64,000 nucleotides of DNA from Escherichia coli (GTDB lineage: Bacteria > Pseudomonadota > Gammaproteobacteria > Enterobacterales > Enterobacteriaceae). The stretch lies in the NCBI RefSeq assembly GCF_017348835.2, contig NZ_CP071375.1; one strand, given 5' to 3'. The translations under genes were made by a program, and so were the position numbers. Each line of letters opens with the position of its first letter. Positions within the stretch are counted from its first letter, which is position 1. Under the pieces are notes generated by a model. The model searched no databases. It saw nothing but the letters and a program-made list of their open reading frames with translations, and was not told the origin of the DNA. This document shows positions 5,709-64,000 of the stretch, one piece after another.

Positions 5709-6474
5709 TATTACTAACGAATCATTAGCACTGGCATTAATGCTGGTGGTGGTGGCAATCTTAATTAGCCATAAAGAAAAACTGGCGCTGGAGAAAGATA
5801 TTCTCTGGAGCGTCGGGCGCGCGATAATTCAGCTGATTATTGTTGGCTATGTGCTGAAGTATATTTTCAGCGTGGATGATGCCAGCCTGACATTATTGAT
5901 GGTGTTATTTATCTGCTTTAATGCGGCGTGGAACGCGCAAAAACGCAGTAAATATATTGCTAAAGCTTTTATCTCATCGTTTATTGCCATTACGGTCGGG
6001 GCGGGAATTACCCTGGCGGTGCTGATTCTCTCAGGGTCGATTGAATTTATCCCGATGCAGGTGATCCCTATCGCCGGGATGATTGCCGGTAACGCCATGG
6101 TAGCGGTGGGGTTGTGTTACAACAATTTAGGGCAACGGGTCATTAGCGAACAGCAACAGATTCAGGAGAAACTGAGTCTTGGCGCGACGCCGAAGCAGGC
6201 TTCAGCGATATTGATTCGCGACAGTATTCGCGCGGCTTTAATTCCGACGGTCGATTCAGCAAAAACGGTTGGCTTAGTGAGTTTACCAGGAATGATGTCC
6301 GGGCTGATATTTGCCGGGATTGATCCGGTGAAGGCGATTAAATATCAGATTATGGTGACCTTTATGCTGCTCTCAACCGCCAGCTTGTCGACCATTATTG
6401 CCTGCTATTTAACCTATCGTAAGTTTTATAATTCGCGCCACCAGTTGGTGGTGACGCAATTGAAGAAGAAATGA
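5695..6474 (+). CDS. fetB: iron-export ABC transporter permease FetB (YbbM)
   Basis: Polytopic membrane protein. Start placed at internal ATG 5695 (MNSHNITNESL) to give the 259-aa K-12 length. Overlaps the fetA end. Confidence 0.9.
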   Translation: MNSHNITNESLALALMLVVVAILISHKEKLALEKDILWSVGRAIIQLIIVGYVLKYIFSVDDASLTLLMVLFICFNAAWNAQKRSKYIAKAFISSFIAITVGAGITLAVLILSGSIEFIPMQVIPIAGMIAGNAMVAVGLCYNNLGQRVISEQQQIQEKLSLGATPKQASAILIRDSIRAALIPTVDSAKTVGLVSLPGMMSGLIFAGIDPVKAIKYQIMVTFMLLSTASLSTIIACYLTYRKFYNSRHQLVVTQLKKK

Positions 6475-6480
6475 TGCGAT

Positions 6481-6506
6481 GCCGGATGCGCAGCATCGCA
6501 TCCGGC
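6481..6506. terminator. REP-like GC hairpin between convergent fetB and cnoX
   Basis: gccggatgcg / cgcatccggc form a 10-bp stem with a 6-nt loop. Confidence 0.6.
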
Positions 6507-6536
6507 GTTGTGGTTCATGTGCCGATCAACGGAATA

Positions 6537-7433
<897 letters not shown>

Positions 7434-29016: not shown

Positions 29017-30684
29017 ATGATCCACGCCTTTATTAAAAAAGGGTGTTTTCAGGATTCGGTCAGTTTAATGATTATTTCACGAAAACTCAGCGAATCAGAA
29101 AATGTTGATGATGTTTCCGTAATGATGGGTACGCCCGCCAATAAAGCGTTATTAGATACCACAGGTTTCTGGCATGACGATTTTAATAACGCCACGCCGA
29201 ACGATATTTGCGTGGCAATTCGTAGCGAAGCGGCGGATGCGGGGATCGCGCAGGCGATTATGCAGCAGCTTGAAGAGGCGCTAAAACAACTGGCGCAGGG
29301 GTCAGGCAGCAGCCAGTCCTTGACGCAGGTGCGTCGCTGGGACAGTGCCTGTCAGAAATTACCCGATGCCAATCTGGCGCTGATTTCAGTGGCTGGCGAG
29401 TATGCGGCGGAGCTGGCGAATCAGGCGCTGGATCGCAACCTCAACGTGATGATGTTCTCCGATAACGTCACGCTGGAAGATGAAATCCAACTTAAAACCC
29501 GCGCGCGGGAAAAAGGCTTGCTGGTGATGGGGCCGGACTGCGGTACGTCGATGATTGCCGGCACGCCGCTGGCTTTTGCTAACGTGATGCCGGAAGGCAA
29601 CATTGGCGTCATTGGCGCTTCCGGTACCGGGATTCAGGAGCTGTGCTCGCAGATTGCGCTGGCAGGGGAGGGAATTACTCACGCGATTGGCCTTGGCGGC
29701 CGCGACCTCAGCCGTGAAGTGGGCGGCATCAGTGCGCTAACAGCGCTGGAAATGCTCAGTGCAGACGAGAAAAGCGAAGTGCTGGCATTTGTTTCAAAAC
29801 CACCTGCCGAAGCTGTGCGTCTGAAAATTGTTAATGCCATGAAAGCAACCGGCAAACCGACGGTGGCGCTGTTTTTAGGTTATACCCCGGCGGTGGCCCG
29901 CGACGAGAATGTCTGGTTTGCCTCCTCGCTGGATGAGGCCGCACGCCTGGCTTGCCTGCTTTCACGCGTTACGGCGCGACGTAACGCGATAACGCCTGCC
30001 AGCAGCGGATTTATTTGCGGTTTGTATACCGGCGGTACGCTGGCTGCCGAAGCGGCGGGATTACTTGCCGGACACCTTGGCGTGGAAGCCGATGATGCCC
30101 ATCATCACGGCATGATGCTGGACGCCGATGGCCACCAGATTATTGACCTTGGCGATGATTTCTACACCGTCGGGCGTCCCCATCCGATGATCGACCCAAC
30201 CTTACGCAACCAGTTAATTGCCGATCTCGGCGCTAAACCGCAAGTGCGCGTATTGCTGCTTGATGTCGTGATTGGCTTCGGTGCGACCGCCGATCCTGCC
30301 GCCTCGCTGGTAAGCGCCTGGCAAAAAGCATGTGCCGCGCGTTCAGACAATCAACCACTGTATGCCATTGCCACGGTGACAGGCACTGAACGTGACCCGC
30401 AATGCCGCTCGCAGCAAATCGCCACGCTGGAAGATGCGGGGATCGCGGTAGTGAGTTCGCTGCCGGAAGCCACCTTGCTGGCGGCGGCACTGATTCGTCC
30501 GCTTTCGCCTGCCACTCAGCAACACACACCGTCATTACTGGAAAACGTCGCCGTGATTAACATCGGATTACGCAGCTTTGCGCTGGAGCTACAAAGCGCC
30601 AGCAAACCGGTTGTGCATTACCAATGGTCGCCAGTCGCCGGCGGCAATAAAAAACTGGCTCGTTTATTAGAACGTTTGCAATAA
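29017..30684 (+). CDS. fdrA: FdrA, succinyl-CoA-synthetase-alpha-like protein (oxamate/oxalurate branch of allantoin pathway)
   Basis: 555 aa. CoA-ligase-like fold (GIGASGTGIQE). K-12 synteny. Confidence 0.9.
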   Translation: MIHAFIKKGCFQDSVSLMIISRKLSESENVDDVSVMMGTPANKALLDTTGFWHDDFNNATPNDICVAIRSEAADAGIAQAIMQQLEEALKQLAQGSGSSQSLTQVRRWDSACQKLPDANLALISVAGEYAAELANQALDRNLNVMMFSDNVTLEDEIQLKTRAREKGLLVMGPDCGTSMIAGTPLAFANVMPEGNIGVIGASGTGIQELCSQIALAGEGITHAIGLGGRDLSREVGGISALTALEMLSADEKSEVLAFVSKPPAEAVRLKIVNAMKATGKPTVALFLGYTPAVARDENVWFASSLDEAARLACLLSRVTARRNAITPASSGFICGLYTGGTLAAEAAGLLAGHLGVEADDAHHHGMMLDADGHQIIDLGDDFYTVGRPHPMIDPTLRNQLIADLGAKPQVRVLLLDVVIGFGATADPAASLVSAWQKACAARSDNQPLYAIATVTGTERDPQCRSQQIATLEDAGIAVVSSLPEATLLAAALIRPLSPATQQHTPSLLENVAVINIGLRSFALELQSASKPVVHYQWSPVAGGNKKLARLLERLQ

Positions 30685-33807: not shown

Positions 33808-34875
33808 TTAACTGAACTTACTCTGCGCCCACATCACGCCGCTGGCATATTCTGGCGGCAGCAGCGGGATTAAGGCTTCCAGCGTCGCGGTCAGACGCGA
33901 TGTGTCGCTGTCGGTTAAATTCAGATGCCCCACTTTACGCCCCGGACGGACTTCTTTGTCGTACCAGTGCAGATGCACCAGCGGCAATTTCAGCCAGTCA
34001 TAATTCACATCGCTACCAATCAGGTTGATCATCACCGACGGACTATTCACTATCGGTTGCGGTAACGGCAGATCGGTAATCGCCCGCAGATGCAGCTCAA
34101 ACTGGCTGATGCTGGCACCGTTTTGTGTCCAGTGACCGCTGTTATGCACACGCGGTGCCAGTTCGTTGATCAACAGACCTTGCGGGGTGACAAAACACTC
34201 CATTGCCATCACGCCTACATAGCCCAGCTCCTGCATAATCGCCGAAAGCATCTCTTCGGCTTGCGCTTGCTGCTGCGCATTGGCCTGCGGGAAAGCGACG
34301 CTGGTGCGCAAAATACCGTCCTGATGCAGGTTATGCGTCAGCGGATAAAACACGGTGCTGCCATCAAAGCCGCGCGCGCCAACCAGCGACACTTCACCAG
34401 AGAAGTTTATGCCCTGCTCGACAATACATTCGCCGTAGCATTCAGCCGGTAACTGCTCGGTTTCATCGGCGCGTAAACGCCATTGACCGCGTCCGTCATA
34501 GCCACCAGTGCGACGCTTAACAATCGCCAGCTCACCTAAACGATCAAACACCGCAGGCCACTCGTTGCGTCCGGCAAGTAACTGCCACGGTGCAGTCGGC
34601 AGGTGGAGCTTATCGAAAAGCTGCTTCTGAGTCAGACGGTCAGCAATAATCGGGAACACATCGCGGTTCACAAAGGCCGGATGGCGCGCCAGCTCGCGGG
34701 TTAATGCGGTTTCCGGCCAGCGTTCTATCTCAGCGGTAATCACGCTTTGTTGAAAAGGCACCGCCGCCGGTTCAGCGTCCAGCCCGACTGGCCAGACAGC
34801 AATGCCTAACGGTTCGCCTGCCTGACGCAGCATACGGCCTAACTGCCCGTTACCGAGGACGCAAACCTGTTTCAT
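33808..34875 (-). CDS. purK: N5-carboxyaminoimidazole ribonucleotide synthase
   Basis: 355 aa, ATP-grasp fold. 4-nt overlap with purE. Confidence 0.95.
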
Positions 34876-35381
34876 GCCGCACCTCGCGGGTCCGGGTTTT
34901 CCAGCACTTCGTCGGTCTGGGCTTTGCGCCAGTCATTCAGACGCTGGTGCAGCTCTTTATCATGAGTCGCAAGAATTTGTGCTGCCAGTAACGCCGCGTT
35001 TGCCGCGCCAGCTTTACCAATCGCCAGCGTACCCACCGGAATGCCGCGCGGCATTTGTACGATGGAGTAGAGGCTATCGATACCGCTCAGTGCGGCGCTC
35101 TGTACTGGCACGCCCAGCACTGGCACCAGCGTTTTGGCGGCAATCATACCCGGCAGGTGCGCTGCGCCGCCTGCGCCCGCAATAATCACCTGATAACCGT
35201 TCTCTTCGGCGCTTTCGGCGAAGCTGAACAGTTTATCGGGGGTGCGGTGAGCAGAAACCACTTCAACGTGGTGCGGGACATTCAGGATTTCGAAGATTTC
35301 GGCGGCGAACTGCATGGTAGCCCAGTCGCTTTTGGACCCCATCACGATGGCGACACGCGCCGGATTATTGCGGGAAGACAT
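34872..35381 (-). CDS. purE: N5-CAIR mutase
   Basis: Start at [20 protein letters not shown] gives 169 aa. Confidence 0.95.
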
Positions 35382-47102: not shown

Positions 47103-48265
47103 TTACGCCTTCTTTATATCCTCCATAATTCCACAGTGGGACATATTTGGGACATGATCACCAAAAATGTCGTCTATTTTCCTTGCATGCTCTGTCAAAT
47201 GATTAGGCGCAAGGTGAGCATACCTACGAACCATTTCTATGGACTCCCATCCGCCCATTTCCTGAAGCACAGATAATGGGACGCCTGACTGGATCAGCCA
47301 GCTTGCCCAGGTGTGTCTGAGGTCATGGAAACGGAAATCTTCAATTCCTGCACGACGACAAGCTGATAGCCATGATGTCTTGCTGTCGATGCGCATCTTC
47401 CTGACCGCAGGCGTTGATGTTCCATCTGCTCGCTTAGCCGCCTTGGTATGTACAAACACCCATTTGTGATGCTTGCCTATTTGATCACGCAACACTTTAC
47501 AGGCGGTATCGTTCAGCGCCACACCAATGGCGCGGTTTGATTTGCTCTCTTCTGGATTCACCCAGGCAACTCGTCGCTGCATGTCGATTTGTTGCCATTC
47601 CAGATTTATGATGTTCGACTTTCTCAGACCAGTTGCCAGCGCAAACTTGACGACAGATTTCAGTGGTTCGGGGCACTCATCAATAAGGCGTTTTGCTTCC
47701 TCCTTTTCCAGCCATCTGACTCGCTTGTTTCTGACCGCTGGTATCTTGATGACAGGCGCTTTTTCCAGCCACTTCCAGTCGCGTTCTGCAGCACGGAGAA
47801 TGGCCTTTATCATGGCAAGATGCTTTGCCTTTGTCTGAGTTGATACTGGCTTTGGTTCATAAACAGGCGGTTCTTTACCTTTCCTGATGGCGGCCTGAAC
47901 TTTCTGTTTCCATATTTCTTTCGTCTTTCTGTTATGCATTCTGCTTACAGCAGAGTAAATCTTTGCCTCCGAGATATCTTTAAGCCTTATACCCTCAAAA
48001 TGTTCAAGCCAGAACTCAATCCGGCTTTTATCTGAATCGAGAGATTTTTATCAGCTTTTTCCTCAAGCCATCTTAGGCAGGCCTCTTCAAAAGTGACATC
48101 AGGTAAATCCCCTAGCTTTTCTACTCGCCAGAGTTCTGCTTTTCGCTTGTCGTGCAACTCCTGAGCTTGCCGCTTGTCCTTTGTGCCAAGAGATTCCTTA
48201 ATTCGTTTCCCGCCCGGGAGCGAATACGAGGCATACCATATTTCATTTCTGCGGAAGAGTGACAT
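47103..48265 (-). pseudogene. intD: tyrosine integrase IntD-like, split by a -1 frameshift in an A/T run
   Basis: Two adjacent ORFs (92 aa at 47987-48265 and 278 aa at 47103-47939) together reproduce remembered IntD. The frames diverge at the run ttttt (48045-48049): the sequence reads [10 protein letters not shown] here versus the remembered [11 protein letters not shown]. The catalytic R..HxxR..Y region ([14 protein letters not shown]) is intact in the distal part. Confidence 0.8.
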
Positions 48266-51099: not shown

Positions 51100-51500
51100 C
51101 CGATTAGTTTCTCCACAAAACAGAGAAGAACACCTGTGGTGGCCGCCGCCCGGATGGATTGGGTTATGAGCCCGTCGTCCGGTGATGCTCTTCTCTGTTT
51201 TGTAAAAAGGACGGTACCAGCCGGAAGCAAGGGTACAAGCTGGTACCGCCAGGACTACACACAGCATAAAGTTGTGGTGCCGGGTGCCCTCCCGGTGCCT
51301 GGCGAAGGTTGCACACCAGGCGGGTGGGTATCCACAGAAGGTCGACTGTCAGCCTCAACCTTAACCCGCGTGCGCTGAGCCGCATTCACCACAACGCTAA
51401 GGATTCTCTCTGGTTGAAAATACTTAGCTGTTATGTGCCTGCTTTTAGCCACATCAGGCGAGGTGGACCTGGTTATTCCCCAACAACAAGGATTCGGTTA
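51100..51500 (+). ncRNA. candidate large structured RNA / structured leader (unclassified)
   Basis: About 60% GC in sampled 60-nt blocks and no credible ORF. Perfect helices: 51115-51129/51189-51203 (15 bp), 51212-51221/51239-51248 (10 bp), 51271-51279/51387-51395 (9 bp), 51305-51311/51356-51362 (7 bp), 51396-51401/51423-51428 (6 bp). Helix 51276-51284/51291-51299 has two G-U pairs valid only in the + sense. Strand and boundaries are tentative. Confidence 0.3.
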
Positions 51501-51536
51501 ATCTGGATATCCCCAACAACAATAAGAGTATTCAAT

Positions 51537-52052
51537 GTGATCGCTGAATTAACGGCAGCAATGACGGCTATTCGTGAAACAGCCCAGATTGCAAAACTAA
51601 TGAACGAGGCAAAAACTCAAGCTGAAGTAAATGCGGCTATTGGTGAGCTGAACTCAAAGCTTGCGTCTATTCAGCGCGAATGCGTGTCTCTCGTTGAACT
51701 GGTGGGCTCTTATCAAGAAATAAATGCTTCTCTCAAAGCTAAAATTGCAGAATTCGAAAACTTTGAGGCTCAGACGGAAGGCTATATCCTTAACCAACTT
51801 GAGTCGGGTACTTTTGTATACTCGAAGGAGGTAATCGTGAACGGTGGCAGCATAACCATGCATCTTTGCCCAAAATGTTTTGGACAAAAGATAGTATCGA
51901 TACTTCAACCATTCCCGGTTAGCGAAGATGAGCTTTTTCATAAAAGCAGGTGCCTCCACTGTGAAAATAAGTTTCTGATGAATAAAAATCCGGATTACGT
52001 ATCGCCTCCATCCATTGAGGAGTTGTCCAGAAAACTTAACGGCAATCTGTAG
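51537..52052 (+). CDS. hypothetical coiled-coil + zinc-ribbon protein (171 aa), convergent moron between early-left operon and cI
   Basis: GTG 51537 lies 8 nt after an AAGAG SD. The N-terminal ~75 aa are heptad-like (AQIAKLMNEAKTQAEVNAAIGELNSKLASIQRE...LKAKIAEFENFE). The C-terminus carries CPKC-x24-CLHC. It has its own terminator at 52092-52115. The opposite-strand ORF has antisense-like composition. Confidence 0.6.
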   Translation: MIAELTAAMTAIRETAQIAKLMNEAKTQAEVNAAIGELNSKLASIQRECVSLVELVGSYQEINASLKAKIAEFENFEAQTEGYILNQLESGTFVYSKEVIVNGGSITMHLCPKCFGQKIVSILQPFPVSEDELFHKSRCLHCENKFLMNKNPDYVSPPSIEELSRKLNGNL

Positions 52053-52077
52053 ATTACTACTGTTGTGGATATCCAGA

Positions 52078-52089
52078 TTGTTAAAGAGC
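52078..52089 (-). promoter_or_regulatory. rrn-type boxA (putative nutL) on the leftward early transcript
   Basis: Minus-sense aGCTCTTTAACAA matches the remembered rrn boxA consensus TGCTCTTTAACAA at 12/13. It lies about 200 nt downstream of OL and just after a hairpin. Confidence 0.5.
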
Positions 52090-52091
52090 TA

Positions 52092-52115
52092 AGCGTCCTG
52101 TAGGGCGCTTTTTTG
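52092..52115 (+). terminator. rho-independent terminator of the 171-aa gene
   Basis: agcgtcc-tgta-gggcgct hairpin (one U-G pair in the + sense) followed by T6. Confidence 0.7.
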
Positions 52116-52280
52116 TTGCTAACGAATCATCCTGGACTTCATATGCCCCAGGCGGCTACTTCGTGGGCGTCCTGCCTGTTCGTTTTTGACATTTACTGAC
52201 TGCTTACGACACATGCACCGTGTTGCAACCAGATTTTGTTGTAATCCTGTAGTTGGTCTGGAACAAAAGATAAAATTAAA

Positions 52281-52317
52281 TTGCGAGATATGCAAGCGAT
52301 ATTTGCGAGGTATGCAA
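52281..52317. promoter_or_regulatory. OL: two 15-bp repressor operators (pL region)
   Basis: TTGCGAGATATGCAA (52281-52295) and TTGCGAGGTATGCAA (52303-52317), with starts 22 bp apart. The same word family occurs in the cI-cro intergenic region. Confidence 0.6.
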
Positions 52318-52371: not shown

Positions 52372-53064
52372 TTAATTATGTCTCTTAAGGGTTTGCGACT
52401 GACTGATTAAGACCTTTCCAAAGACCATGAATCGGTGTTCGTTTTCGCTAGTAATTCCCCATTCACGGTAAATCTGGTTATCAGAAATCACCAGCAGTTT
52501 GTCAGGAATCATTTGAAGTCTTTTAACGTATATTTTGTCATCAAAACCAAAGACATATATACCATCACCATCAAACTGATTGATGCTGACATCAACGAAG
52601 ATGAGATCTCCTGGCTCAATGGTTGGACACATACTGTCCCCACGAACGTTGATAACTTTGATGTGATTGGCTGGTCGTCCGCCGAACATTGATACAGCAT
52701 TATCAGTTCTGTATTCGATGGCATGAATCACATCAATGACATCACCGCCCTGGATAAGGCCATTTCCCGCACTGGCACTGATATCCAGCATTTCAATACG
52801 GAACACATCCTTCACCTGCGCAACATCCTCATTATTACTGTTTTTATATACAGTATTACTTTTGTGGGCAGAGGTAAAGAGATCAGCAATATCAACACCT
52901 AAGCTCTTGGCAATATTACTCAGTGTTTGTTCGGTAAATTGTTTTTGCTTACCCGTTTCTAAGCGCGAGATGTTCGCCGCATCTACTCCTATTGCTTCAG
53001 CGAGATCGGCGATTTTCATGTTCTTCGCTTGGCGAAGTTGTCTGACTCGGTTTCCTATGTTCAT
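52372..53064 (-). CDS. CI-like prophage repressor (HTH_XRE + S24 LexA-like peptidase)
   Basis: 230 aa. N-terminal XRE HTH (IGNRVRQLRQAKNMKIADLAEAIGVDAANISRLETGK). C-terminal S24 motifs GDSM (nucleophile Ser) and YVKRL (Lys). Confidence 0.88.
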   Translation of the reverse strand: MNIGNRVRQLRQAKNMKIADLAEAIGVDAANISRLETGKQKQFTEQTLSNIAKSLGVDIADLFTSAHKSNTVYKNSNNEDVAQVKDVFRIEMLDISASAGNGLIQGGDVIDVIHAIEYRTDNAVSMFGGRPANHIKVINVRGDSMCPTIEPGDLIFVDVSINQFDGDGIYVFGFDDKIYVKRLQMIPDKLLVISDNQIYREWGITSENEHRFMVFGKVLISQSQTLKRHN

Positions 53065-56474: not shown

Positions 56475-57284
56475 ATGAATAATCTGATGGTCATTGATGG
56501 TATTGAAGTTCGTCGTGATGCTTATGGGCGTTACAGCCTGAACGATCTGCATCGCGCAGCAGTAGCATCTGGTGCAAATGCCAGAACCAAGGAGCCAGGA
56601 AAGTTTCTTTCCAGCCAACAAACTGTTGAGCTTGTTCATGAATTAACCAACACCCAGAATTTGGGTGTTGACCCGGTGAGTGTGATTCATGGGGGAAATG
56701 AACGGGGAACGTATGTCTGTAAGGAACTGGTGTATGCCTATGCAATGTGGATCAGCCCGTCATTCCATCTGAAGGTGATCCGTACTTTCGATATGGTAAC
56801 CAGCGCGCCGGAAAAGTTATCCGGACAGGTTGCTGACAAGATGCAGGCTGGCGTGATTCTGCTGGACTTTATGCGCCGGGAGTTAAATCTGTCTAACTCA
56901 TCTGTGCTTGGGGCCTGTCAGAAACTCCAGGAGGCTGTTGGCTTACCGAATCTGGCACCGCGCTATGCCATTGATGCACCTGCTGACGCGCCTGATGGCT
57001 CAAGCCGCCCGACGCTGTCGCTGAGTGCACTGCTGAAGCAGTATGGTATCCGCCTGACGGCTAATCAGGCATATCACCAGATGGCGAAGCTGGGGATCGT
57101 TGAACAACGCGAACGATACAGCCGTACCGCGATTAACAACATCAAAAAATTCTGGTCGCTGACAGCGAAAGGTTGCATGTTCGGCAAGAACATCACCAGT
57201 CCCGCAAATCCGCGCGAGACGCAGCCGCATTTCTTCGAATCCCGATTCCCTGAGCTGTTAAAGCTGCTCGATACCGTTCATTGA
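56475..57284 (+). CDS. KilA-N domain protein (269 aa)
   Basis: Start at MNNLMVIDGIEVRRDAYGRYSLNDLHRA. The KilA-N signature continues through WISPSFHLKVIRTFD. Confidence 0.75.
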   Translation: MNNLMVIDGIEVRRDAYGRYSLNDLHRAAVASGANARTKEPGKFLSSQQTVELVHELTNTQNLGVDPVSVIHGGNERGTYVCKELVYAYAMWISPSFHLKVIRTFDMVTSAPEKLSGQVADKMQAGVILLDFMRRELNLSNSSVLGACQKLQEAVGLPNLAPRYAIDAPADAPDGSSRPTLSLSALLKQYGIRLTANQAYHQMAKLGIVEQRERYSRTAINNIKKFWSLTAKGCMFGKNITSPANPRETQPHFFESRFPELLKLLDTVH

Positions 57285-57285
57285 G

Positions 57286-58281
57286 GTGAACGTGAGAGCG
57301 CTACTGACCCCCGAGATTGCCCCGCGTATGGGGATCGTATTGTTCAGACCCGGTTCAGAGCTGATGCCCCTGTTTATGCAGGGGCGTGTCCTGCTGGAGC
57401 CTGAGCCGGAACGTTATTCATCTTTTGCCAGTGGTGCCGTTCCGGCTGCATCACAACCGCTGGCGGATGATCCTGCCGTTCGGGCCGTGTTCCGCAATGA
57501 GGCAGTGATCCGTCGTGCTGGTGGCGTGGAATGTCTTGAAAGCTGGTTACTTCGTGAAAAAGGCTGCCAGTGGCCTCATTCCGACTGGCACAGCGAGAAC
57601 ATGACCACAATGCGACACGCGCCGGGCGCAATCCGTCTGTGCTGGCACTGCGATAACCAACTGCGCGATCAGTTCACGGAACGGCTGGAATCAATGGCAA
57701 CGGATAACTGTGCCCGCTGGGTGTTGTCTGTTGTGCGTCGGGATCTCGGTTTTGATGACAGTCACGTTGTGACAATGCCGGAACTGTGCTGGTGGCTGAT
57801 TCGTAATGATCTGGCGGATACCTTACCGGAAAGTGCAGCCCGTAAGGCACTGAGATTACCGAAGCCTTTTGTGCCGTCTGTCACCCGGGAAAGTGACCTG
57901 GTGCCTTCGGTTCCTGCCACCAGCATCATCCAGAATAAAGCGAAAAAGGTGCTGGCGCTGAAAGTGGATCCGGAGTCGCCGGACTCTTTTATGTTACGCC
58001 CAAAACGTCGCCGCTGGGTTAATGAAAAGTACACGCGATGGGTTAAGACGCAGCCGTGCGCATGTTGTGGAAAACCTGCTGATGATCCCCACCACCTGAT
58101 AGGCCACGGTCAGGGTGGAATGGGGACAAAAGCGCATGACCTCTTTGTGTTGCCTTTGTGCAGAAAGCATCACGACGAGCTGCATGCGGATACTGTGGCA
58201 TTCGAAGAGAAGTATGGCTCCCAGCTGGAGCTGATATTTCGTTTTATCGATCGTGCGCTGGCGATTGGTGTGCTGGCCTGA
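57286..58281 (+). CDS. DUF968 (YdfU-like) protein with HNH-like C-terminal zinc motif
   Basis: C-terminus [46 protein letters not shown] start; GTG 57292 is an alternative, 5 nt after GAGG. Confidence 0.7.
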
Positions 58282-58298
58282 TTTTGTGGAGAAAGTTG

Positions 58299-58682
58299 AT
58301 GCGTGATATTCAGATGGTTCTTGAGCGTTGGGGAGCGTGGGCGGCTAATAATCATGAAGATGTGACTTGGTCGTCCATTGCCGCCGGTTTTAAGGGATTA
58401 ATTCCTTCAAAAGTAAAATCTCGCCCACAATGTTGTGACGATGACGCGATGATCATTTGCGGGTGCATGGCCCGTCTGAAAAAGAACAACAGCGACTTGC
58501 ACGATTTATTAGTAGATTATTATGTAGTCGGTATGACATTCATGTCACTGGCAGGTAAGCATTGCTGCTCTGATGGTTATATCGGGAAAAGGTTACAGAA
58601 GGCTGAGGGCATAATTGAAGGGATGTTAATGGCATTAGATATCCGGTTAGAGATGGATATCGTTGTTAATAACTCTAATTAA
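58299..58682 (+). CDS. quuD: late-gene antiterminator Q (QuuD type)
   Basis: Start at [22 protein letters not shown] gives 127 aa. Matches remembered DLP12 QuuD. Confidence 0.88.
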
Positions 58683-58699
58683 TATGCCAATTGTTTACT

Positions 58700-58870
58700 A
58701 AAAATTATTAAAAATGGGGCGTTGCAACGCCCCCAAAAATAAAGGGTAATATATAACAGAAGGTTTATATAGTTAGAAGCAAGGTTGTGCTCCTAAAGGA
58801 AGTGGCTTGAGGGAGCCACTTATATGTTGGGGAGGCAAAGCCTCCCGCAACATATCTTTTAGTAATCAAA
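58700..58870 (-). ncRNA. ipeX: IpeX-like sRNA region (nmpC 3' UTR up to its terminator)
   Basis: About 170 nt between the nmpC stop and the ggggcgt-tgca-acgcccc hairpin (58716-58733), which is followed by a T-rich tract in the minus sense. It contains a long hairpin at 58822-58855. The location matches the published description of ipeX as I remember it. Confidence 0.5.
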
Positions 58871-59953
58871 TTAGAACTGGTAAACCATACCTACAGCAAC
58901 GATATCATCGGTAGCAACGCCAGATGCTTTCGTGAAATCGCTCTTATCAATCAGGTTGATTTTGTAATCAACAAAAGTGGACATATTTTTGTTGAAGTAA
59001 TAGGTTGCACCTACATCAATATATTCAACCAGGTCCTGATCACCCCACGCACCCAAGTCTTTTCCTTTAGATTGCAGGTAAGCAACGGACGGACGCAGAC
59101 CGAAGTCGAACTGATATTGTGCAACTACTTCGAAGTTTTGTGCTTTGTTGGCAATATGGTTATTACCAAAAACAGTCATGTTCTGGGTTTCAGAATAGGT
59201 GGTAGCCAGATAGATGTTGTTCGCATCATATTTCAGACCAGCTGCCCATACTTCAGCATTTTGACCAGATGCATTCAGGCTGTTGTTACCGTAGATAACC
59301 TGATTATTAGTGCGGTCAGATTTAGCATAGGTTGCACCTACACCGAATCCTTCATACTCATACGTAGTGGAGAAACCGAAACCATCACCATTAGCTTCAG
59401 TTACGTCAGTGCGGTCATTTTTACCCTGATACTGAGCAGCAAAGTTCAGACCATCAACCAGACCAAAGAAGTCGTTGTTACGATAAGTTGCAACACCAGT
59501 GGTGCGACCAGTCATGAACACATCTGTTTGGGTCCAGGTATCGCCACCGAATTCTGGCAGAACGTCAGTCCACGCACCGATGTCATATGCTACACCGTAG
59601 TTACGGCCGTAATCGATTGAGCCGTAGTCCCCGAATTTCAGGCCTGCAAATGCAAGACGGGTTTTGTCTTTGGAGGAGCCTTGAGATTCAGCGCGGTTGC
59701 CTTTGAATTCATATTCCCACTGACCGAAACCAGTCAGTTGATCGTTGATTTGGGTTTCACCTTTGAAGCCAAGACGGGCATAAGTAGTATCACCATCATC
59801 TGCATCATTAGAGGAGAAGTAGTGCTTGGCATTAACTTTCCCATATAGATCCAGCTTGTTACTGTCTTTATTATAAATTTCAGCTGCCTGAGCAGACATC
59901 GCCATCAGTACTGATGCGGCTACAGCAGAAATTGCCACTGTTAATTTTTTCAT
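58871..59953 (-). CDS. nmpC: phage-borne general porin NmpC/Lc type, intact (360 aa)
   Basis: Signal peptide [23 protein letters not shown], OmpC/OmpF-family beta-barrel ending in YQF. No IS interruption (K-12 nmpC is IS5-disrupted, from memory). Confidence 0.9.
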
Positions 59954-60541
59954 CGTGAGCCCTTTTTTTTGAACTATTATTAAAAAATGATGTCACTGCG
60001 CGATAAATATTCATCTAATCAATGTGATTATTTCAAGATGTAAGTTTTAGTTTCTCATTTAATTTGTGAGGTAGATCTCTATTTTTATCTGAACTTTTTC
60101 TATCGAAACCTATTTATGGCTCTTATTTGAACAAAAATAAACCTATTAGCTAATTTATATTAATGGCTGTTATTTATGGAGGTTCTATAATTCGGCGGTT
60201 TAATTTAAATCAACTAAAAATAACGGCGGAAATTATTTGTAGGATATTTGTTGAGGTTTTCTTATGTATTTGTGGTGGTGTTTTGAACACTCGGTAGCAT
60301 TCTCATAAATATCATTCAGTGGTTTACGTACGTAAAAAATTGGTTATGCTGTTAAGAGTGGTTACTTCGTCACACAGCTTAAACCCGCCGTCGAGCTGGT
60401 TTTTCCATTTTTTGAGTCTCGATATTAGCTGATAACTCAATACCTGAGTTATTCACTGACTCCGAGTCTGTTACGTTTCTGCTTTTTTGCGATACGTTGT
60501 ATTCCCTCAATTTACACCCGCTTTGTCTGCGAGGTGGGGTT

Positions 60542-60757
60542 ATGAAATCCATGGATAAGTTAACAACGGGTGTCGCCTATGGCACCTCAGCAGGTAGTGC
60601 CGGTTACTGGTTTTTACAGCTGCTCGATAAAGTTACGCCCTCACAGTGGGCAGCAATAGGTGTGCTGGGTAGCCTGGTATTTGGCCTGCTGACGTACCTG
60701 ACAAACCTTTATTTCAAGATTAAAGAAGATAAGCGCAAGGCTGCGAGAGGTGAATAA
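60542..60757 (+). CDS. essD: phage 21-type pinholin (EssD)
   Basis: Start at [24 protein letters not shown] gives 71 aa. Two TM segments and a charged C-terminus. Confidence 0.88.
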
Positions 60758-61254
60758 TGCCTCCATCATTACGAAAAGCCGTTGCTGCTGCTATTGGTGG
60801 CGGAGCAATTGCTATAGCATCAGTGTTAATCACTGGCCCAAGTGGTAACGATGGTCTGGAAGGTGTCAGCTACATACCATACAAAGATATTGTTGGTGTA
60901 TGGACTGTATGTCACGGGCATACAGGAAAAGACATCATGCTCGGTAAAACGTATACCAAAGCAGAATGCAAAGCACTCTTGAATAAAGACCTTGCCACTG
61001 TCGCCAGACAAATTAACCCGTACATCGAAGTCGATATACCGGAAACAACGCGCGGCGCTCTTTACTCATTCGTTTACAACGTGGGTGCTGGCAATTTCAG
61101 AACATCGACGCTTCTTCGCAAAATAAACCAGGGCGATATCAAAGGCGCATGTGATCAGCTACGTCGCTGGACATACGCTGGCGGTAAGCAATGGAAAGGC
61201 CTGATGACTCGCCGTGAGATTGAGCGTGAAATCTGTTTGTGGGGTCAGCAATGA
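60757..61254 (+). CDS. rrrD: SAR endolysin (lysozyme RrrD)
   Basis: 165 aa. N-terminal signal-anchor-release helix [20 protein letters not shown], then a T4-lysozyme-like catalytic region ([23 protein letters not shown]). Confidence 0.9.
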
Positions 61255-61712
61255 ACAGAGTAACCGCGATTATCTCCGCTCTGGTTATCTGCATCATCGT
61301 CTGCCTGTCATGGGCTGTTAATCATTACCGTGATAACGCCATTACCTACAAAGCCCAGCGCGACAAAAATGCCAGAGAACTGAAGCTGGCGAACGCCACC
61401 ATTACTGACATGCAGCAGCGCCAGCGTGATGTTGCTGCACTGGATGAAAAATACACGAAGGAGTTAGCTAATGCGAAAGCTGAAAATGATGCTCTGCGTG
61501 ATGATGTTGCCGCTGGTCGTCGTCGGTTGCACATCAAAGCAGTCTGTCAGTCAGTGCGTGAAGCCACCACCGCCTCCGGCGTGGATAATGCAGCCTCCCC
61601 CCGACTGGCAGACACCGCTGAACGGGATTATTTCACCCTCAGAGAGAGGCTGATCACTATGCAAAAACAACTGGAAGGAACCCAGAAGTATATTAATGAG
61701 CAGTGCAGATAG
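61251..61712 (+). CDS. rzpD: i-spanin Rz (RzpD)
   Basis: Start at [21 protein letters not shown] gives 153 aa. N-terminal TM plus coiled coil. Confidence 0.88.
61471..61653 (+). CDS. rzoD: o-spanin lipoprotein Rz1 (RzoD), embedded in the +1 frame of Rz
   Basis: 60 aa. Lipobox VVGC and a Pro-rich mature part ([15 protein letters not shown]). Confidence 0.88.
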
Positions 61713-61743
61713 AGCTGCCCATATCGATGGGCAACTCATGCAA

Positions 61744-62037
61744 TTATTGTGAGCAATACACACGCGCTTCCAGCGGAGTATAAATGCCTAAAGTAATAAA
61801 ACCGAGCAATCCATTTACGAATGTTTGCTGGGTTTCTGTTTTAACAACATTTTCTGCGCCGCCACAAATTTTGGCTGCATCAACAGTTTTCTCCTGTCCA
61901 ATTCCCGAAACGAAGAAGTGATGGGTGATGGTTTCCTTTGGTGTTACTGCTGTCGGTTTGTTTCCAACAGTAAACGTCTGTTGAGCACATCCTGTAATAA
62001 GCATTGCCAGAGCGGCAGAAAACAACATTTTTTTCAT
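61744..62037 (-). CDS. borD: Bor lipoprotein (serum-resistance type)
   Basis: Start at MKKMLFSAALAMLITGC gives 97 aa. Lipobox ITGC. Confidence 0.88.
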   Translation of the reverse strand: MKKMLFSAALAMLITGCAQQTFTVGNKPTAVTPKETITHHFFVSGIGQEKTVDAAKICGGAENVVKTETQQTFVNGLLGFITLGIYTPLEARVYCSQ

Positions 62038-62399
62038 CTTATTATCCTGCATTGTTAAAAACGGCAGAATCCTATGTGACAACAATTAAACGATAATTAA
62101 ATGGATTGATGAAAATTAAAACTATATAGGTGTACGCTCAGACTATTGGAGGAAGTTGGGGACACTCAGAATCCTGTGGAATGAAATAAACCGGTCTATC
62201 CGTCTATTACCCTTTTAGCTGCGCTGTATCGTCGCCGTATTCCCGCATTAACCATGACCGTAGCCCGACGGGGAATTCCTTCTGCGTGAGTGTGCGGGAA
62301 TAATCAAAAACGATGCACACCGGGTTTTACTGTGCTGACAGACGCAGGGTTACCCTCATAGTCGCTTTTCCGGTGCGATGGTGGAAGAAACCGGGATGT

Positions 62400-62594
62400 T
62401 TATTCATCATCACTTTGGATTGATGTATATGCTCTCTTTTCTGACGTTAGTCTCCGACGGCAGGCTTCAATGACCCAGGCTGAGAAATTCCCGGACCCTT
62501 TTTGCTCAAGAGCGATGTTAATTTGTTCAATCATTTGGTTAGGAAAGCGGATGTTGCGGGTTGTTGTTCTGCGGGTTCTGTTCTTAGTTGACAT
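62400..62594 (-). CDS. ylcI: DUF3950 small protein (YlcI / lambda orf-64 type)
   Basis: 64 aa, MSTKNRTRRTTTRNIRFPNQMIEQINIALEQKGSGNFSAWVIEACRRRL. Arg-rich N-terminus plus an RHH-like segment. Confidence 0.75.
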   Translation of the reverse strand: MSTKNRTRRTTTRNIRFPNQMIEQINIALEQKGSGNFSAWVIEACRRRLTSEKRAYTSIQSDDE

Positions 62595-62793
62595 GAGGTT
62601 GCCCCGTATTCAGTGTCGCTGATTTGTATTGTCTGAAGTTGTTTTTACGTTAAGTTGATGCAGATCAATTAATACGATACCTGCGTCATAATTGATTATT
62701 TGACGTGGTTTGATGGCGTAGATGCACGTTGTGACATGTAGATGATAATTATTATCATTTTGCGGGTCCTTTCCGGCGATCCGACAGGTTACG

Positions 62794-62805
62794 GGGCGGC
62801 GACCT
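62794..62805. other. cosN 12-nt cohesive-end sequence (lambda type), within the cosQ-cosN-cosB region ~62700-62980
   Basis: ...ccgacaggttacg|GGGCGGCGACCT|cgcgggttttcgctatttatgaaaattttccgg... matches remembered lambda right and left termini. Confidence 0.85.
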
Positions 62806-62982
62806 CGCGGGTTTTCGCTATTTATGAAAATTTTCCGGTTTAAGGCGTTTCCGTTCTTCTTCGTCGTAACTTAATGTTTTTATTTAAAACACCCTCTGAA
62901 AAGAAAGGAAACGACAGGTGCTGAAAACGAGCTTTTTGGCCTCTGTCGTTTCCTTTCTCTGTTTTTGTCCGTGGAATGAACA

Positions 62983-63528
62983 ATGGAAGTCAACAAAAAG
63001 CAGCTGGCTGACATTTTCGGCGCGAGTATCCGTACCATTCAGAACTGGCAGGAGCAGGGAATGCCCGTTCTGCGGGGTGGTGGCAAGGGTAATGAAGTGC
63101 TTTATGACTCTGCCGCCGCCATAAAATGGTATGCCGAAAGGGATGCTGAAATTGAGAACGAAAAGCTGCGCCGGGAAGTTGAAGAACTGCGGCAGGCCAG
63201 CGAGACAGATCTCCAGCCAGGGACTATTGAGTACGAACGCCATCGACTTACGCGTGCGCAGGCCGACGCACAGGAGCTGAAAAATGCCAGAGACTCCGCT
63301 GAAGTGGTGGAAACCGCATTCTGTACTTTCGTGCTGTCGCGGATCGCAGGTGAAATTGCCAGTATTCTCGACGGGATCCCCCTGTCGGTGCAGCGGCGTT
63401 TTCCGGAACTGGAAAACCGACATGTTGATTTCCTGAAACGGGATATCATCAAAGCCATGAACAAAGCAGCCGCGCTGGATGAACTGATACCGGGGTTGCT
63501 GAGTGAATATATCGAACAGTCAGGTTAA
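62983..63528 (+). CDS. nohD: terminase small subunit Nu1 (NohD type)
   Basis: 181 aa, MEVNKKQLADIFGASIRTIQNWQEQGMPV. Near-identical to remembered lambda Nu1. Confidence 0.93.
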   Translation: MEVNKKQLADIFGASIRTIQNWQEQGMPVLRGGGKGNEVLYDSAAAIKWYAERDAEIENEKLRREVEELRQASETDLQPGTIEYERHRLTRAQADAQELKNARDSAEVVETAFCTFVLSRIAGEIASILDGIPLSVQRRFPELENRHVDFLKRDIIKAMNKAAALDELIPGLLSEYIEQSG

Positions 63529-64000
63529 CAGGCTGCGGCATTTTGTCCGCGCCGGGCTTCGCTCACTGTTCAGGCCGGAGACACAGACCGCCGTTGAATG
63601 GGCGGATGCCAATTACTATCTCCCGAAAGAATCCGCATACCAGGAAGGGCGCTGGGAAACACTGCCCTTTCAGCGGGCCATCATGAATGCGATGGGCAGC
63701 GACTACATCCGCGAGGTGAATGTGGTGAAGTCTGCCCGTGTTGGTTATTCCAAAATGCTGTTGGGTGTTTATGCCTACTTCATAGAGCATAAGCAGCGCA
63801 ACACCCTTATCTGGTTGCCGACGGATGGCGATGCCGAGAACTTTATGAAAACCCACGTCGAGCCGACCATCCGTGATATTCCATCGCTGCTGGCGCTGGC
63901 CCCGTGGTATGGCAAAAAGCACCGGGATAACACGCTCACCATGAAGCGTTTCACCAATGGGCGTGGTTTCTGGTGCCTGGGCGGTAAAGCGGCAAAAAAC
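63503..64000 (+). CDS. terminase large subunit A, N-terminal part (runs off window end)
   Basis: Absent from the ORF track because no stop is reached. Hand translation from GTG 63503 gives (M)NISNSQVNRLRHFVRAGLRSLFRPETQTAVEWADANYYLPKESAYQEGRWETLPFQRAIMNAMG, which matches remembered lambda gpA. It overlaps the nu1 end by 26 nt, as in lambda. Confidence 0.88.
   Translation, partial: MNISNSQVNRLRHFVRAGLRSLFRPETQTAVEWADANYYLPKESAYQEGRWETLPFQRAIMNAMGSDYIREVNVVKSARVGYSKMLLGVYAYFIEHKQRNTLIWLPTDGDAENFMKTHVEPTIRDIPSLLALAPWYGKKHRDNTLTMKRFTNGRGFWCLGGKAAKN

Follow-up and report, generated by a model that had tools for sequence, protein, structure and literature searches.

What kind of gene lies antisense to all of its neighbours beside the repressor of a lambdoid prophage, and how might the prophage live with its product? 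The question is raised by a gene of 171 amino acids (aa) at positions 51537–52052 of the window, by which we mean the whole stretch of 64,000 nucleotides (nt) from the Escherichia coli contig NZ_CP071375.1. The original prediction, made from the sequence letters, had proposed a prophage defence or exclusion gene that could not be placed in any known family. On sequence and predicted fold, our results assign the protein to the Rip1 (ring interacting pore 1) family. We consider it likely that the gene is a real, divergent Rip1 member in the lambdoid sieB slot, acting by the mechanism set out below. The finding is a so far unannotated member of this family and not a new system, and the member with a solved structure occupies the same slot.

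Routine annotation gave no name to the protein. Scans of Pfam and NCBIfam 20.0 returned no match above the cut-offs, only sub-threshold coiled-coil and zinc-ribbon noise. The SieB profile PF14163 did not match the protein, and PADLOC-DB 2.0, a check that the original prediction had proposed, gave no match either. PHROG 1244, for which no function is assigned, matched at E=9e-60. A profile of 19 homologues searched against the PDB retrieved 9oox_L, 'ring interacting pore 1 (Rip1)', at E=6.7e-28 over residues 4–151, with the runner-up at E=0.017. This is further supported by a single-sequence phmmer comparison with 9oox_L (E=2.7e-7), by BLASTP against gp37 of phage HK446 (27% identity, E=4e-11) and by hhalign against Rip1 (98.8% probability, E=6.9e-17, 146 columns). 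The title of PDB entry 9OOX describes a cryo-electron microscopy structure of Escherichia phage HK446 Rip1 in complex with the small terminase of Enterobacteria phage T6. The view that no known family fits the protein is superseded by these matches.

The predicted structure points the same way. The AlphaFold (AF2) model has a mean pLDDT (predicted local distance difference test) of 90.7 and consists of helices at residues 2–24 and 28–79, followed by a beta-rich domain with four cysteines (Cys4). In the structure search that had also been proposed, Foldseek with this model against the PDB returned 9oox_L and 9oox_M as the sole matches below E=0.2, at a probability of 1.00 and with target-normalised TM-scores (template modelling scores) of 0.53 and 0.71. 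The cysteines (C111-x2-C114-x24-C139-x2-C142, or CPKC-x24-CLHC) are invariant in the alignments of 19 and of 45 homologues, and they align with the cysteines of the HK446, HK620 and DMS3 proteins. G91 and Y95 are likewise invariant among the 45 aligned homologues, and the last 20 residues and the stretch between the Cys pairs vary between subfamilies. The original prediction had noted a heptad-like N-terminus of ~75 aa and the zinc ribbon. As in HK446 Rip1, the N-terminal part is rich in Ala and has a moderate amphipathic character (hydrophobic moment 0.35–0.41), and no transmembrane segment is predicted in the protein. The features found are those of Rip1: full-length homology, the fold, the CxxC...CxxC pattern, and a single-gene prophage moron antisense to its neighbours.

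The gene also carries its own expression signals, as had been proposed: a Shine-Dalgarno-like AAGAG, a GTG start and a clean terminator were all found (see the table below). The Prokaryotic Genome Annotation Pipeline (PGAP) gives the same coordinates at an identical locus in E. coli PE164 (WP_000559922.1, 'hypothetical protein'). In the program-made list of open reading frames (ORFs) the frame reaches further upstream, to a TTG at 51309. Because homologues from six genera (Salmonella, Citrobacter, Klebsiella, Edwardsiella, Arsenophonus and others) all begin at MIAEL, some of them with ATG, the GTG at 51537 is the correct start. AAGAG occupies nt 9–14 before the GTG, and its position is kept in homologous loci. 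The terminator consists of a hairpin at 52091–52110 followed by TTTTTTGTTG on the plus strand, and it is kept in the Citrobacter and Klebsiella loci. In addition, a 26-nt inverted repeat, 85% complementary and centred on GGATATCC, brackets the ORF. This repeat is kept in the subfamily of E. coli, Citrobacter and Klebsiella and does not occur in HK620, HK446 or Edwardsiella; it could provide pairing between the 5' and 3' untranslated regions (UTRs) or form a protein-binding palindrome.

The functional facts on Rip1 used here come from secondary sources (section 5 of PMC13434031, PMC12908700 and PMC13601566). The family was published by Patel, McCarthy, Taylor et al. (Nature 651:1060, 2026, via PMC13434031). 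According to that section of PMC13434031, Rip1 is a single prophage-encoded protein that is non-toxic alone, and escape mutations fall in portal for Pseudomonas phages and in small terminase for E. coli phages. Twelve Rip1 subunits encircle a small-terminase 11-mer, the pore is built from the amphipathic helices at the N-terminus and contact with the ring is made by the C-terminal half, with the outcome that membrane integrity is lost prematurely. The same section describes relatives as common across Proteobacteria, chiefly in prophages. Homology and fold match to this pore-forming anti-phage protein support the reading of the 171-aa gene as a putative defence gene, in line with the candidate moron beside the leftward promoter pL that had been suggested.

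The window is 100% identical to E. coli chromosomes such as that of strain PE164, and the locus is part of a lambdoid prophage beside the tRNA-Arg gene downstream of fimZ (the DLP12 site). On the minus strand, a frameshifted intD comes first and then the early-left genes yfdT, yfdR, yfdQ and yfdP, followed by the rip1-like gene on the plus strand. Beyond it lie an S24/XRE repressor gene on the minus strand and then a plus-strand series made up of a cro-like gene, ymfL, replication genes and quuD. Since the repressor gene and yfdP/Q/R/T are all on the minus strand, the rip1-like gene is antisense to all of its neighbours. Two 15-bp palindromes at 52281–52295 and 52303–52317 make up the putative leftward operators (OL). 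Copies of the palindrome TTGCGNGNTANGCAA lie at 52281, 52303, 53085 and 53133, which is four sites compared to 0.78 expected by chance, and the four flank the repressor gene as OL and the rightward operators (OR) would. The pL promoter hexamers were read by eye; a sigma-70 consensus scan did not detect them. Operators and annotation agree with the original prediction that the gene stands next to OL, on the opposite strand to both the repressor gene and the pL operon.

This slot is the one occupied by sieB. In both lambda (34482–35036, plus strand) and P22, sieB has an antisense slot identical to that of the window gene, and HK446 carries its rip1 gene (gp37) antisense to the pL operon, with N on one side and the ral/cIII genes on the other. 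In every further lambdoid context checked (hkaP of HK620/HK630, the O157:H7 copy, and prophages of Citrobacter, Klebsiella and Edwardsiella) the rip1-like gene is antisense between early-left genes and the repressor gene or N. Hence, the analogy with the sieB slot was literally correct, and a slot beside cI and pL indeed hosts known or putative exclusion genes, with lambda and P22 sieB, HK620 hkaP and HK446 rip1 all found there. The expectation that homologues would always lie between cI and the early-left genes holds for the lambdoid loci checked but not for Pseudomonas, where the homologues (DMS3-25 and D3112 orf25) lie between the genes for the small and the large terminase instead. The section on Rip1 in PMC13434031 also places Pseudomonas Rip1 in that terminase slot.

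How might a prophage silence such a gene after induction? Leftward transcription had been suggested, and this has a direct precedent in P22, as the sequence upstream of the gene shows. About 105–110 nt just 5' of the start codon are conserved at the DNA level among loci whose proteins are only ~28% identical, and the same element precedes sieB of lambda and P22, hkaP of HK620, rip1 of HK446 and ymfI of e14. In P22, the antisense RNA sas switches off SieB translation (literature), and its sequence of 127 nt is known from RNA-seq (PMC13397905). P22 sas is the exact reverse complement of the upstream element, from the sieB start codon to 17 nt beyond a core of ~31 nt. The window's minus strand from 51541 to 51415 aligns with P22 sas over 117 nt at 61.5% identity, and the 3' core of the predicted sas-like RNA matches at 34/49 positions; identity to P22 sas is 89.7% in lambda and 73.3% in HK446. 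Judged by these alignments, the ~110 nt upstream of the gene are homologous to P22 sas, and no more than this proximal ~110 nt travels with the slot. The predicted sas-like RNA is complementary to the 5' UTR, the ribosome-binding site and the start codon of the rip1-like gene.

Apart from the core, sas-type elements consist of one or two units with CCCCWACA motifs. The window has an exact 13-nt direct repeat, TCCCCAACAACAA, at 51477–51489 and 51510–51522, 33 nt apart; it represents two CCCCWACA units, and its second copy lies at the transcription start inferred from the P22 alignment. A covariance model from the short-leader class was used to align 86 elements (63 distinct sequences). In the hairpin beside the core, 6/6 pairs covary and 92% of the cells are paired, in a model-fitted alignment that favours structure and excludes the window copy. 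Double-change cells in this hairpin numbered 62, compared to 15.8 in shuffles, and slid controls were 18–52% paired. RNAalifold run on an ordinary MAFFT alignment did not find the variable hairpin, which the covariance-model alignment recovered. When scored with the covariance model, the copy in the window fell short of E<=0.01. The sas RNAs of P22 and HK446 fold into three hairpins, of which the window copy clearly keeps the core hairpin only.

The first reading of this element was a different one, namely a plus-strand mRNA leader with a pseudoknot- or riboswitch-like core at its 5' end and a hairpin that sequesters the ribosome-binding site. This was rejected because P22 transcription starts downstream of the core (annotated sieB promoter at 29690–29720, RNA start at 29727), because the minus strand folds more stably in 63/79 leaders, and because sas is the exact reverse complement of the element. 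A pseudoknot in the core is unproven: a single compensatory change (CCGC/GCGG in Edwardsiella) speaks for the second helix, and the search pattern fixed the first helix.

We propose the following mechanism for the rip1-like gene, in which gene anatomy, sequence and fold homology, slot, orientation and homology to sas are observed, and the functional steps follow the example of relatives. In the lysogen, rightward transcription would start from a weak PsieB-type promoter at ~51473–51504 and end at the terminator at 52091–52118. The protein would be harmless until a superinfecting phage produces late ring oligomers, either small terminase or portal. Its C-terminal Cys4/beta domain would then dock around the ring and its N-terminal amphipathic helices would build a membrane pore, so that the infected cell becomes permeable ahead of progeny maturation, which amounts to abortive infection. 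When pL becomes active, either by induction or in an incoming related phage, leftward transcription would run antisense through the gene and yield the sas-like RNA, whose sequence complements the 5' UTR and start codon. On the model of P22 sieB, this RNA would stop new synthesis and shield the phage from its own defence.

Several observations weigh against this proposal. At only 27% identity to the characterised Rip1, the protein may differ in trigger specificity or even in activity. For neither the gene nor the sas-like RNA did a sigma-70 consensus scan reveal a promoter. The inferred -10 sequence, TAATCT, is weaker than those at the same position in relatives (TAAACT, TAAAAT or TATAAT). The window's sas-like RNA is not predicted to have unusual stability (z=+1.4), compared to z=-1.8 for P22 and z=-1.5 for HK446. 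Moreover, neither the alignment nor the protein shows an evident conserved internal start like that of P22 esc, and hence the 'translational switch' of P22 may not transfer as such.

The low identity also leaves room for a Rip1 homologue with a diverged function, which would sense another oligomeric structure of phage or host, or act for the prophage itself, for instance in lysis timing, in exclusion at a different step or in regulation, instead of forming a ring-triggered pore. The family is indeed large and diverse, with 2,746 representatives of 50%-identity clusters at E<=1e-3, its subfamilies differ in the C-terminal 20 residues and in the segment between the Cys pairs, and a slot that holds at least 34 unrelated cargo proteins does not by its position fix a mechanism. 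Yet, the alignment with Rip1 is full-length and is matched by the fold, the invariant residues sit in the C-terminal domain that contacts the ring according to section 5 of PMC13434031, and phages from those of Pseudomonas to those of E. coli retain the architecture and the slot, which makes a diverged function unlikely in our judgement.

Alternatively, the gene might be no more than a silent or decaying passenger in a defective prophage, unexpressed and non-functional. The frameshifted integrase gene in the identical PE164 locus, the failure of the sigma-70 scan to find a consensus promoter and the annotation of the adjacent minus-strand ORF as a frameshifted pseudogene would all fit such decay. 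It is nevertheless very improbable, given that the ORF is intact and 99% identical in the sequenced phages PhiR49_1 and PhiR29_1, that the protein is conserved across genera with an invariant Cys4, and that ribosome-binding site, terminator and PsieB/sas-type upstream element are retained. We would give even less credence to a DNA- or RNA-binding zinc-ribbon regulator, such as an antirepressor or a transcription factor, in place of a membrane-active defence protein. The combination of coiled coil and Cys4 zinc ribbon is frequent in regulators and the weak Pfam and NCBIfam matches are of just these two kinds, but none of them reaches its curated cut-off, and Rip1 is the only significant match in both sequence and structure. 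A ring-triggered Rip1 protein remains our preferred reading of the 171-aa gene.

Comparison with known systems helps to delimit what is shared. With Rip1 (HK446 gp37, PDB 9OOX, and the Pseudomonas prophage Rip1) the window protein shares homology over its full length, with N-terminal helices and a C-terminal Cys4 beta domain, at a similar size (164 aa in HK446, 171 aa here). The HK446 rip1 gene is likewise a single prophage gene with its own transcription signals, an antisense slot in the pL operon and a sas-type upstream element. It differs in that the window gene is 27% identical, has no abutting N gene, and has its own terminator and the inverted repeat flanking the ORF. HkaP of HK620/HK630, annotated as 'putative superinfection exclusion protein', belongs to the same family (~28% identity, tblastn E=3e-13) and agrees in slot, orientation and upstream element; however, it lies between N/hkaQ and cIII in N-dependent phages, and its annotation is by position only.

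SieB/Esc with sas, in P22 and lambda, has the same slot and orientation as the window gene, a homologous promoter and 5' region, and the antisense-RNA locus. By analogy, the window gene may have a similar role to SieB, which has a lysogen-expressed abortive-infection or exclusion function. SieB itself is an unrelated membrane protein (PF14163), and the window gene is without an evident Esc-like internal start. The tail assembly blocker Tab (JBD26 gp31) is a self-promoted antisense moron in the terminase slot that the Pseudomonas Rip1-like homologues occupy, and it too is a prophage defence acting late in infection. In contrast, Tab is an unrelated protein of 83 aa that blocks tail assembly via the tape-measure protein and is partnered by an anti-defence protein. 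Tab was rejected as a relative, since it shares the slot in Pseudomonas phages but not the protein; so were the unrelated ATPase GiPD474 of Gifsy and the unrelated olg genes of phage Fc02.

Close DNA copies of the rip1-like gene (>=80% coverage) occur in 645 of 5,426 complete E. coli genomes (~12%), including O157:H7, whose prophage copy is 94% identical. Scanning viral contigs with a protein pattern yielded little beyond this, most of the loci found being near-identical.

The original prediction had also treated the ~400-nt structured block upstream and the gene as one possible RNA–protein module. This reading was rejected. The block contains an STnc100/PasD-like element on the minus strand, opposite to the gene; at 36.5 bits against a gathering score of 47, the match marks it as a relative and not as a scored member of STnc100 (RF02076). 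STnc100 and PasD are prophage small RNAs (bioRxiv 10.64898/2026.05.13.724894), and a full-model match on the minus strand is likewise found in PhiR49_1 and in ymfH of e14. Among the complete E. coli genomes the block occurs in 1,814, about three times as many as the 645 with the gene, and both occur together in 372. Moreover, either one is found without the other: e14 has the block (annotated as ymfH) followed by ymfI/ymfJ in place of the rip1-like gene, and the gene copies of O157, HK446 and HK620 are without the STnc100-like block, contrary to the expectation that homologues would always follow a GC-rich block. Pairwise BLAST gives the swappable segment as ~51467–52117, with homology to e14 ending at 51466 and resuming at 52118; the O157 locus has 51429–52089 in common with the window.

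The STnc100-like element has a terminator-like 3' hairpin and comes immediately after the sas-like element on the leftward strand. The PGAP annotation at this position is a frameshifted pseudogene, and the equivalent in e14 carries the annotation of a protein, YmfH; whether ymfH encodes a protein therefore seems doubtful. Between the STnc100-like element and the start of yfdP lies a further hairpin at 51115–51203, with 18-nt arms that are 94% complementary and a loop of 53 nt, partly kept in e14.

The newest outcome of our analysis is how general the sas-type element is, in a putative role of controlling and delimiting a hypervariable cargo slot. Searched for as a pattern, the core was found in at least 120 contigs of IMG/VR. 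The first ORFs after the core fall into at least 34 unrelated clusters among 99 complete ORFs from these at least 120 contigs. Among the matches listed, Rip1-like proteins account for 11–13 loci and SieB (PF14163) for 10 loci, and YmfI is also present. Other cargo includes a protein of 148 aa, a membrane-like protein of 106 aa, a zinc-ribbon protein of 81 aa, many small proteins of no assigned function and many singletons, and most of the cargo is without a Pfam match. Another cargo gene of this slot matches PF14163 at E=1.5e-25. At one IMG/VR locus (L152), the first ORF after the core encodes 136 aa, with a coiled coil at the N-terminus and CxxC...CxxC at the C-terminus. The Rip1 profile at E<=1e-3 did not pick up this protein, which may be a very distant or a convergent Rip1-like protein.

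It is tempting to conclude that the sas-type locus with its ~31-nt core is a general control and recombination platform of the hypervariable lambdoid cargo slot, a tentative idea that we rate at slightly short of an even chance. If it holds, transcription in the pL direction would be one common self-immunity switch for many abortive-infection genes, the core motif would offer an easy way to mine for new prophage defence genes, and the rip1-like gene studied here would be one cargo under sas-type control.

Table. Coordinates of the rip1-like gene and the features around it in the 64,000-nt window
Feature	Position	Strand	Description and basis
rip1-like coding sequence	51537..52052	+	171 aa, GTG start, TAG stop; ORF list and translation
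Shine-Dalgarno-like AAGAG	51523..51527	+	9 nt before GTG; read from sequence
Inferred PsieB-type promoter	51473..51511	+	-10 TAATCT at 51499-51504, start ~51511; P22 alignment only
Intrinsic terminator of rip1-like gene	52091..52118	+	8-bp stem AAGCGTCC/GGGCGCTT, then T-run; terminator scan
sas-like antisense RNA locus	51420..51541	-	Homology to P22 sas; ends inferred from P22
Nearly invariant ~31-nt core, GCCTG(T)CTTTTnnCCACnTCAGGCnnGGTGG	51437..51467		3' hairpin of sas-like RNA; left boundary of swappable slot
Inverted repeat, left arm	51500..51525		-10/5' UTR region; repeat search
Inverted repeat, right arm	52054..52079		Begins 2 nt past stop codon; repeat search
STnc100/PasD-like element	51201-51425	-	Rfam RF02076 full-model match, 36.5 bits (below gathering score), E=1.4e-5
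OL operators	52281..52317	-	Two TTGCGAGrTATGCAA palindromes over putative pL; pattern search, repressor gene adjacent
S24-type repressor gene	52372-53064	-	Annotation of identical PE164 locus

Other parts of the prophage show comparable insertions. The original prediction had noted nmpC antisense between Q and the lysis genes, and a porin gene of OmpC/NmpC type was found antisense between quuD and essD, in the region ~57000–64000 (NZ_CP114128.1, 3595492–3602500). The late region has morons too, with iss (bor-like) and ylcI between the lysis genes and the terminase genes. The integrase at 47103–48265 on the minus strand is split into two ORFs of 278 aa and 92 aa, and intD of the identical PE164 locus is frameshifted with an internal stop; the prophage copy here may be incapable of excision. 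In Edwardsiella, loci at 5962–7279 have two more plus-strand genes of no assigned function after the rip1-like gene and before the N-peptide gene, and one strain has a GmrSD-type gene near the slot, which suggests that the Edwardsiella slot is a small defence island.

Our results close an annotation gap, because the protein is 'hypothetical' in RefSeq and missed by Pfam, NCBIfam 20.0 and PADLOC-DB 2.0, and they widen the known sequence space of the Rip1 family. Kinship with Rip1 adds a likely abortive-infection defence to the strains that carry the gene, which matters for the prediction of host range in phage therapy and biocontrol. The link to a sas-type element suggests how a prophage may escape killing by its own late-acting defence. 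Finally, the conserved core marks a cargo slot that possibly holds many unexplored exclusion genes.

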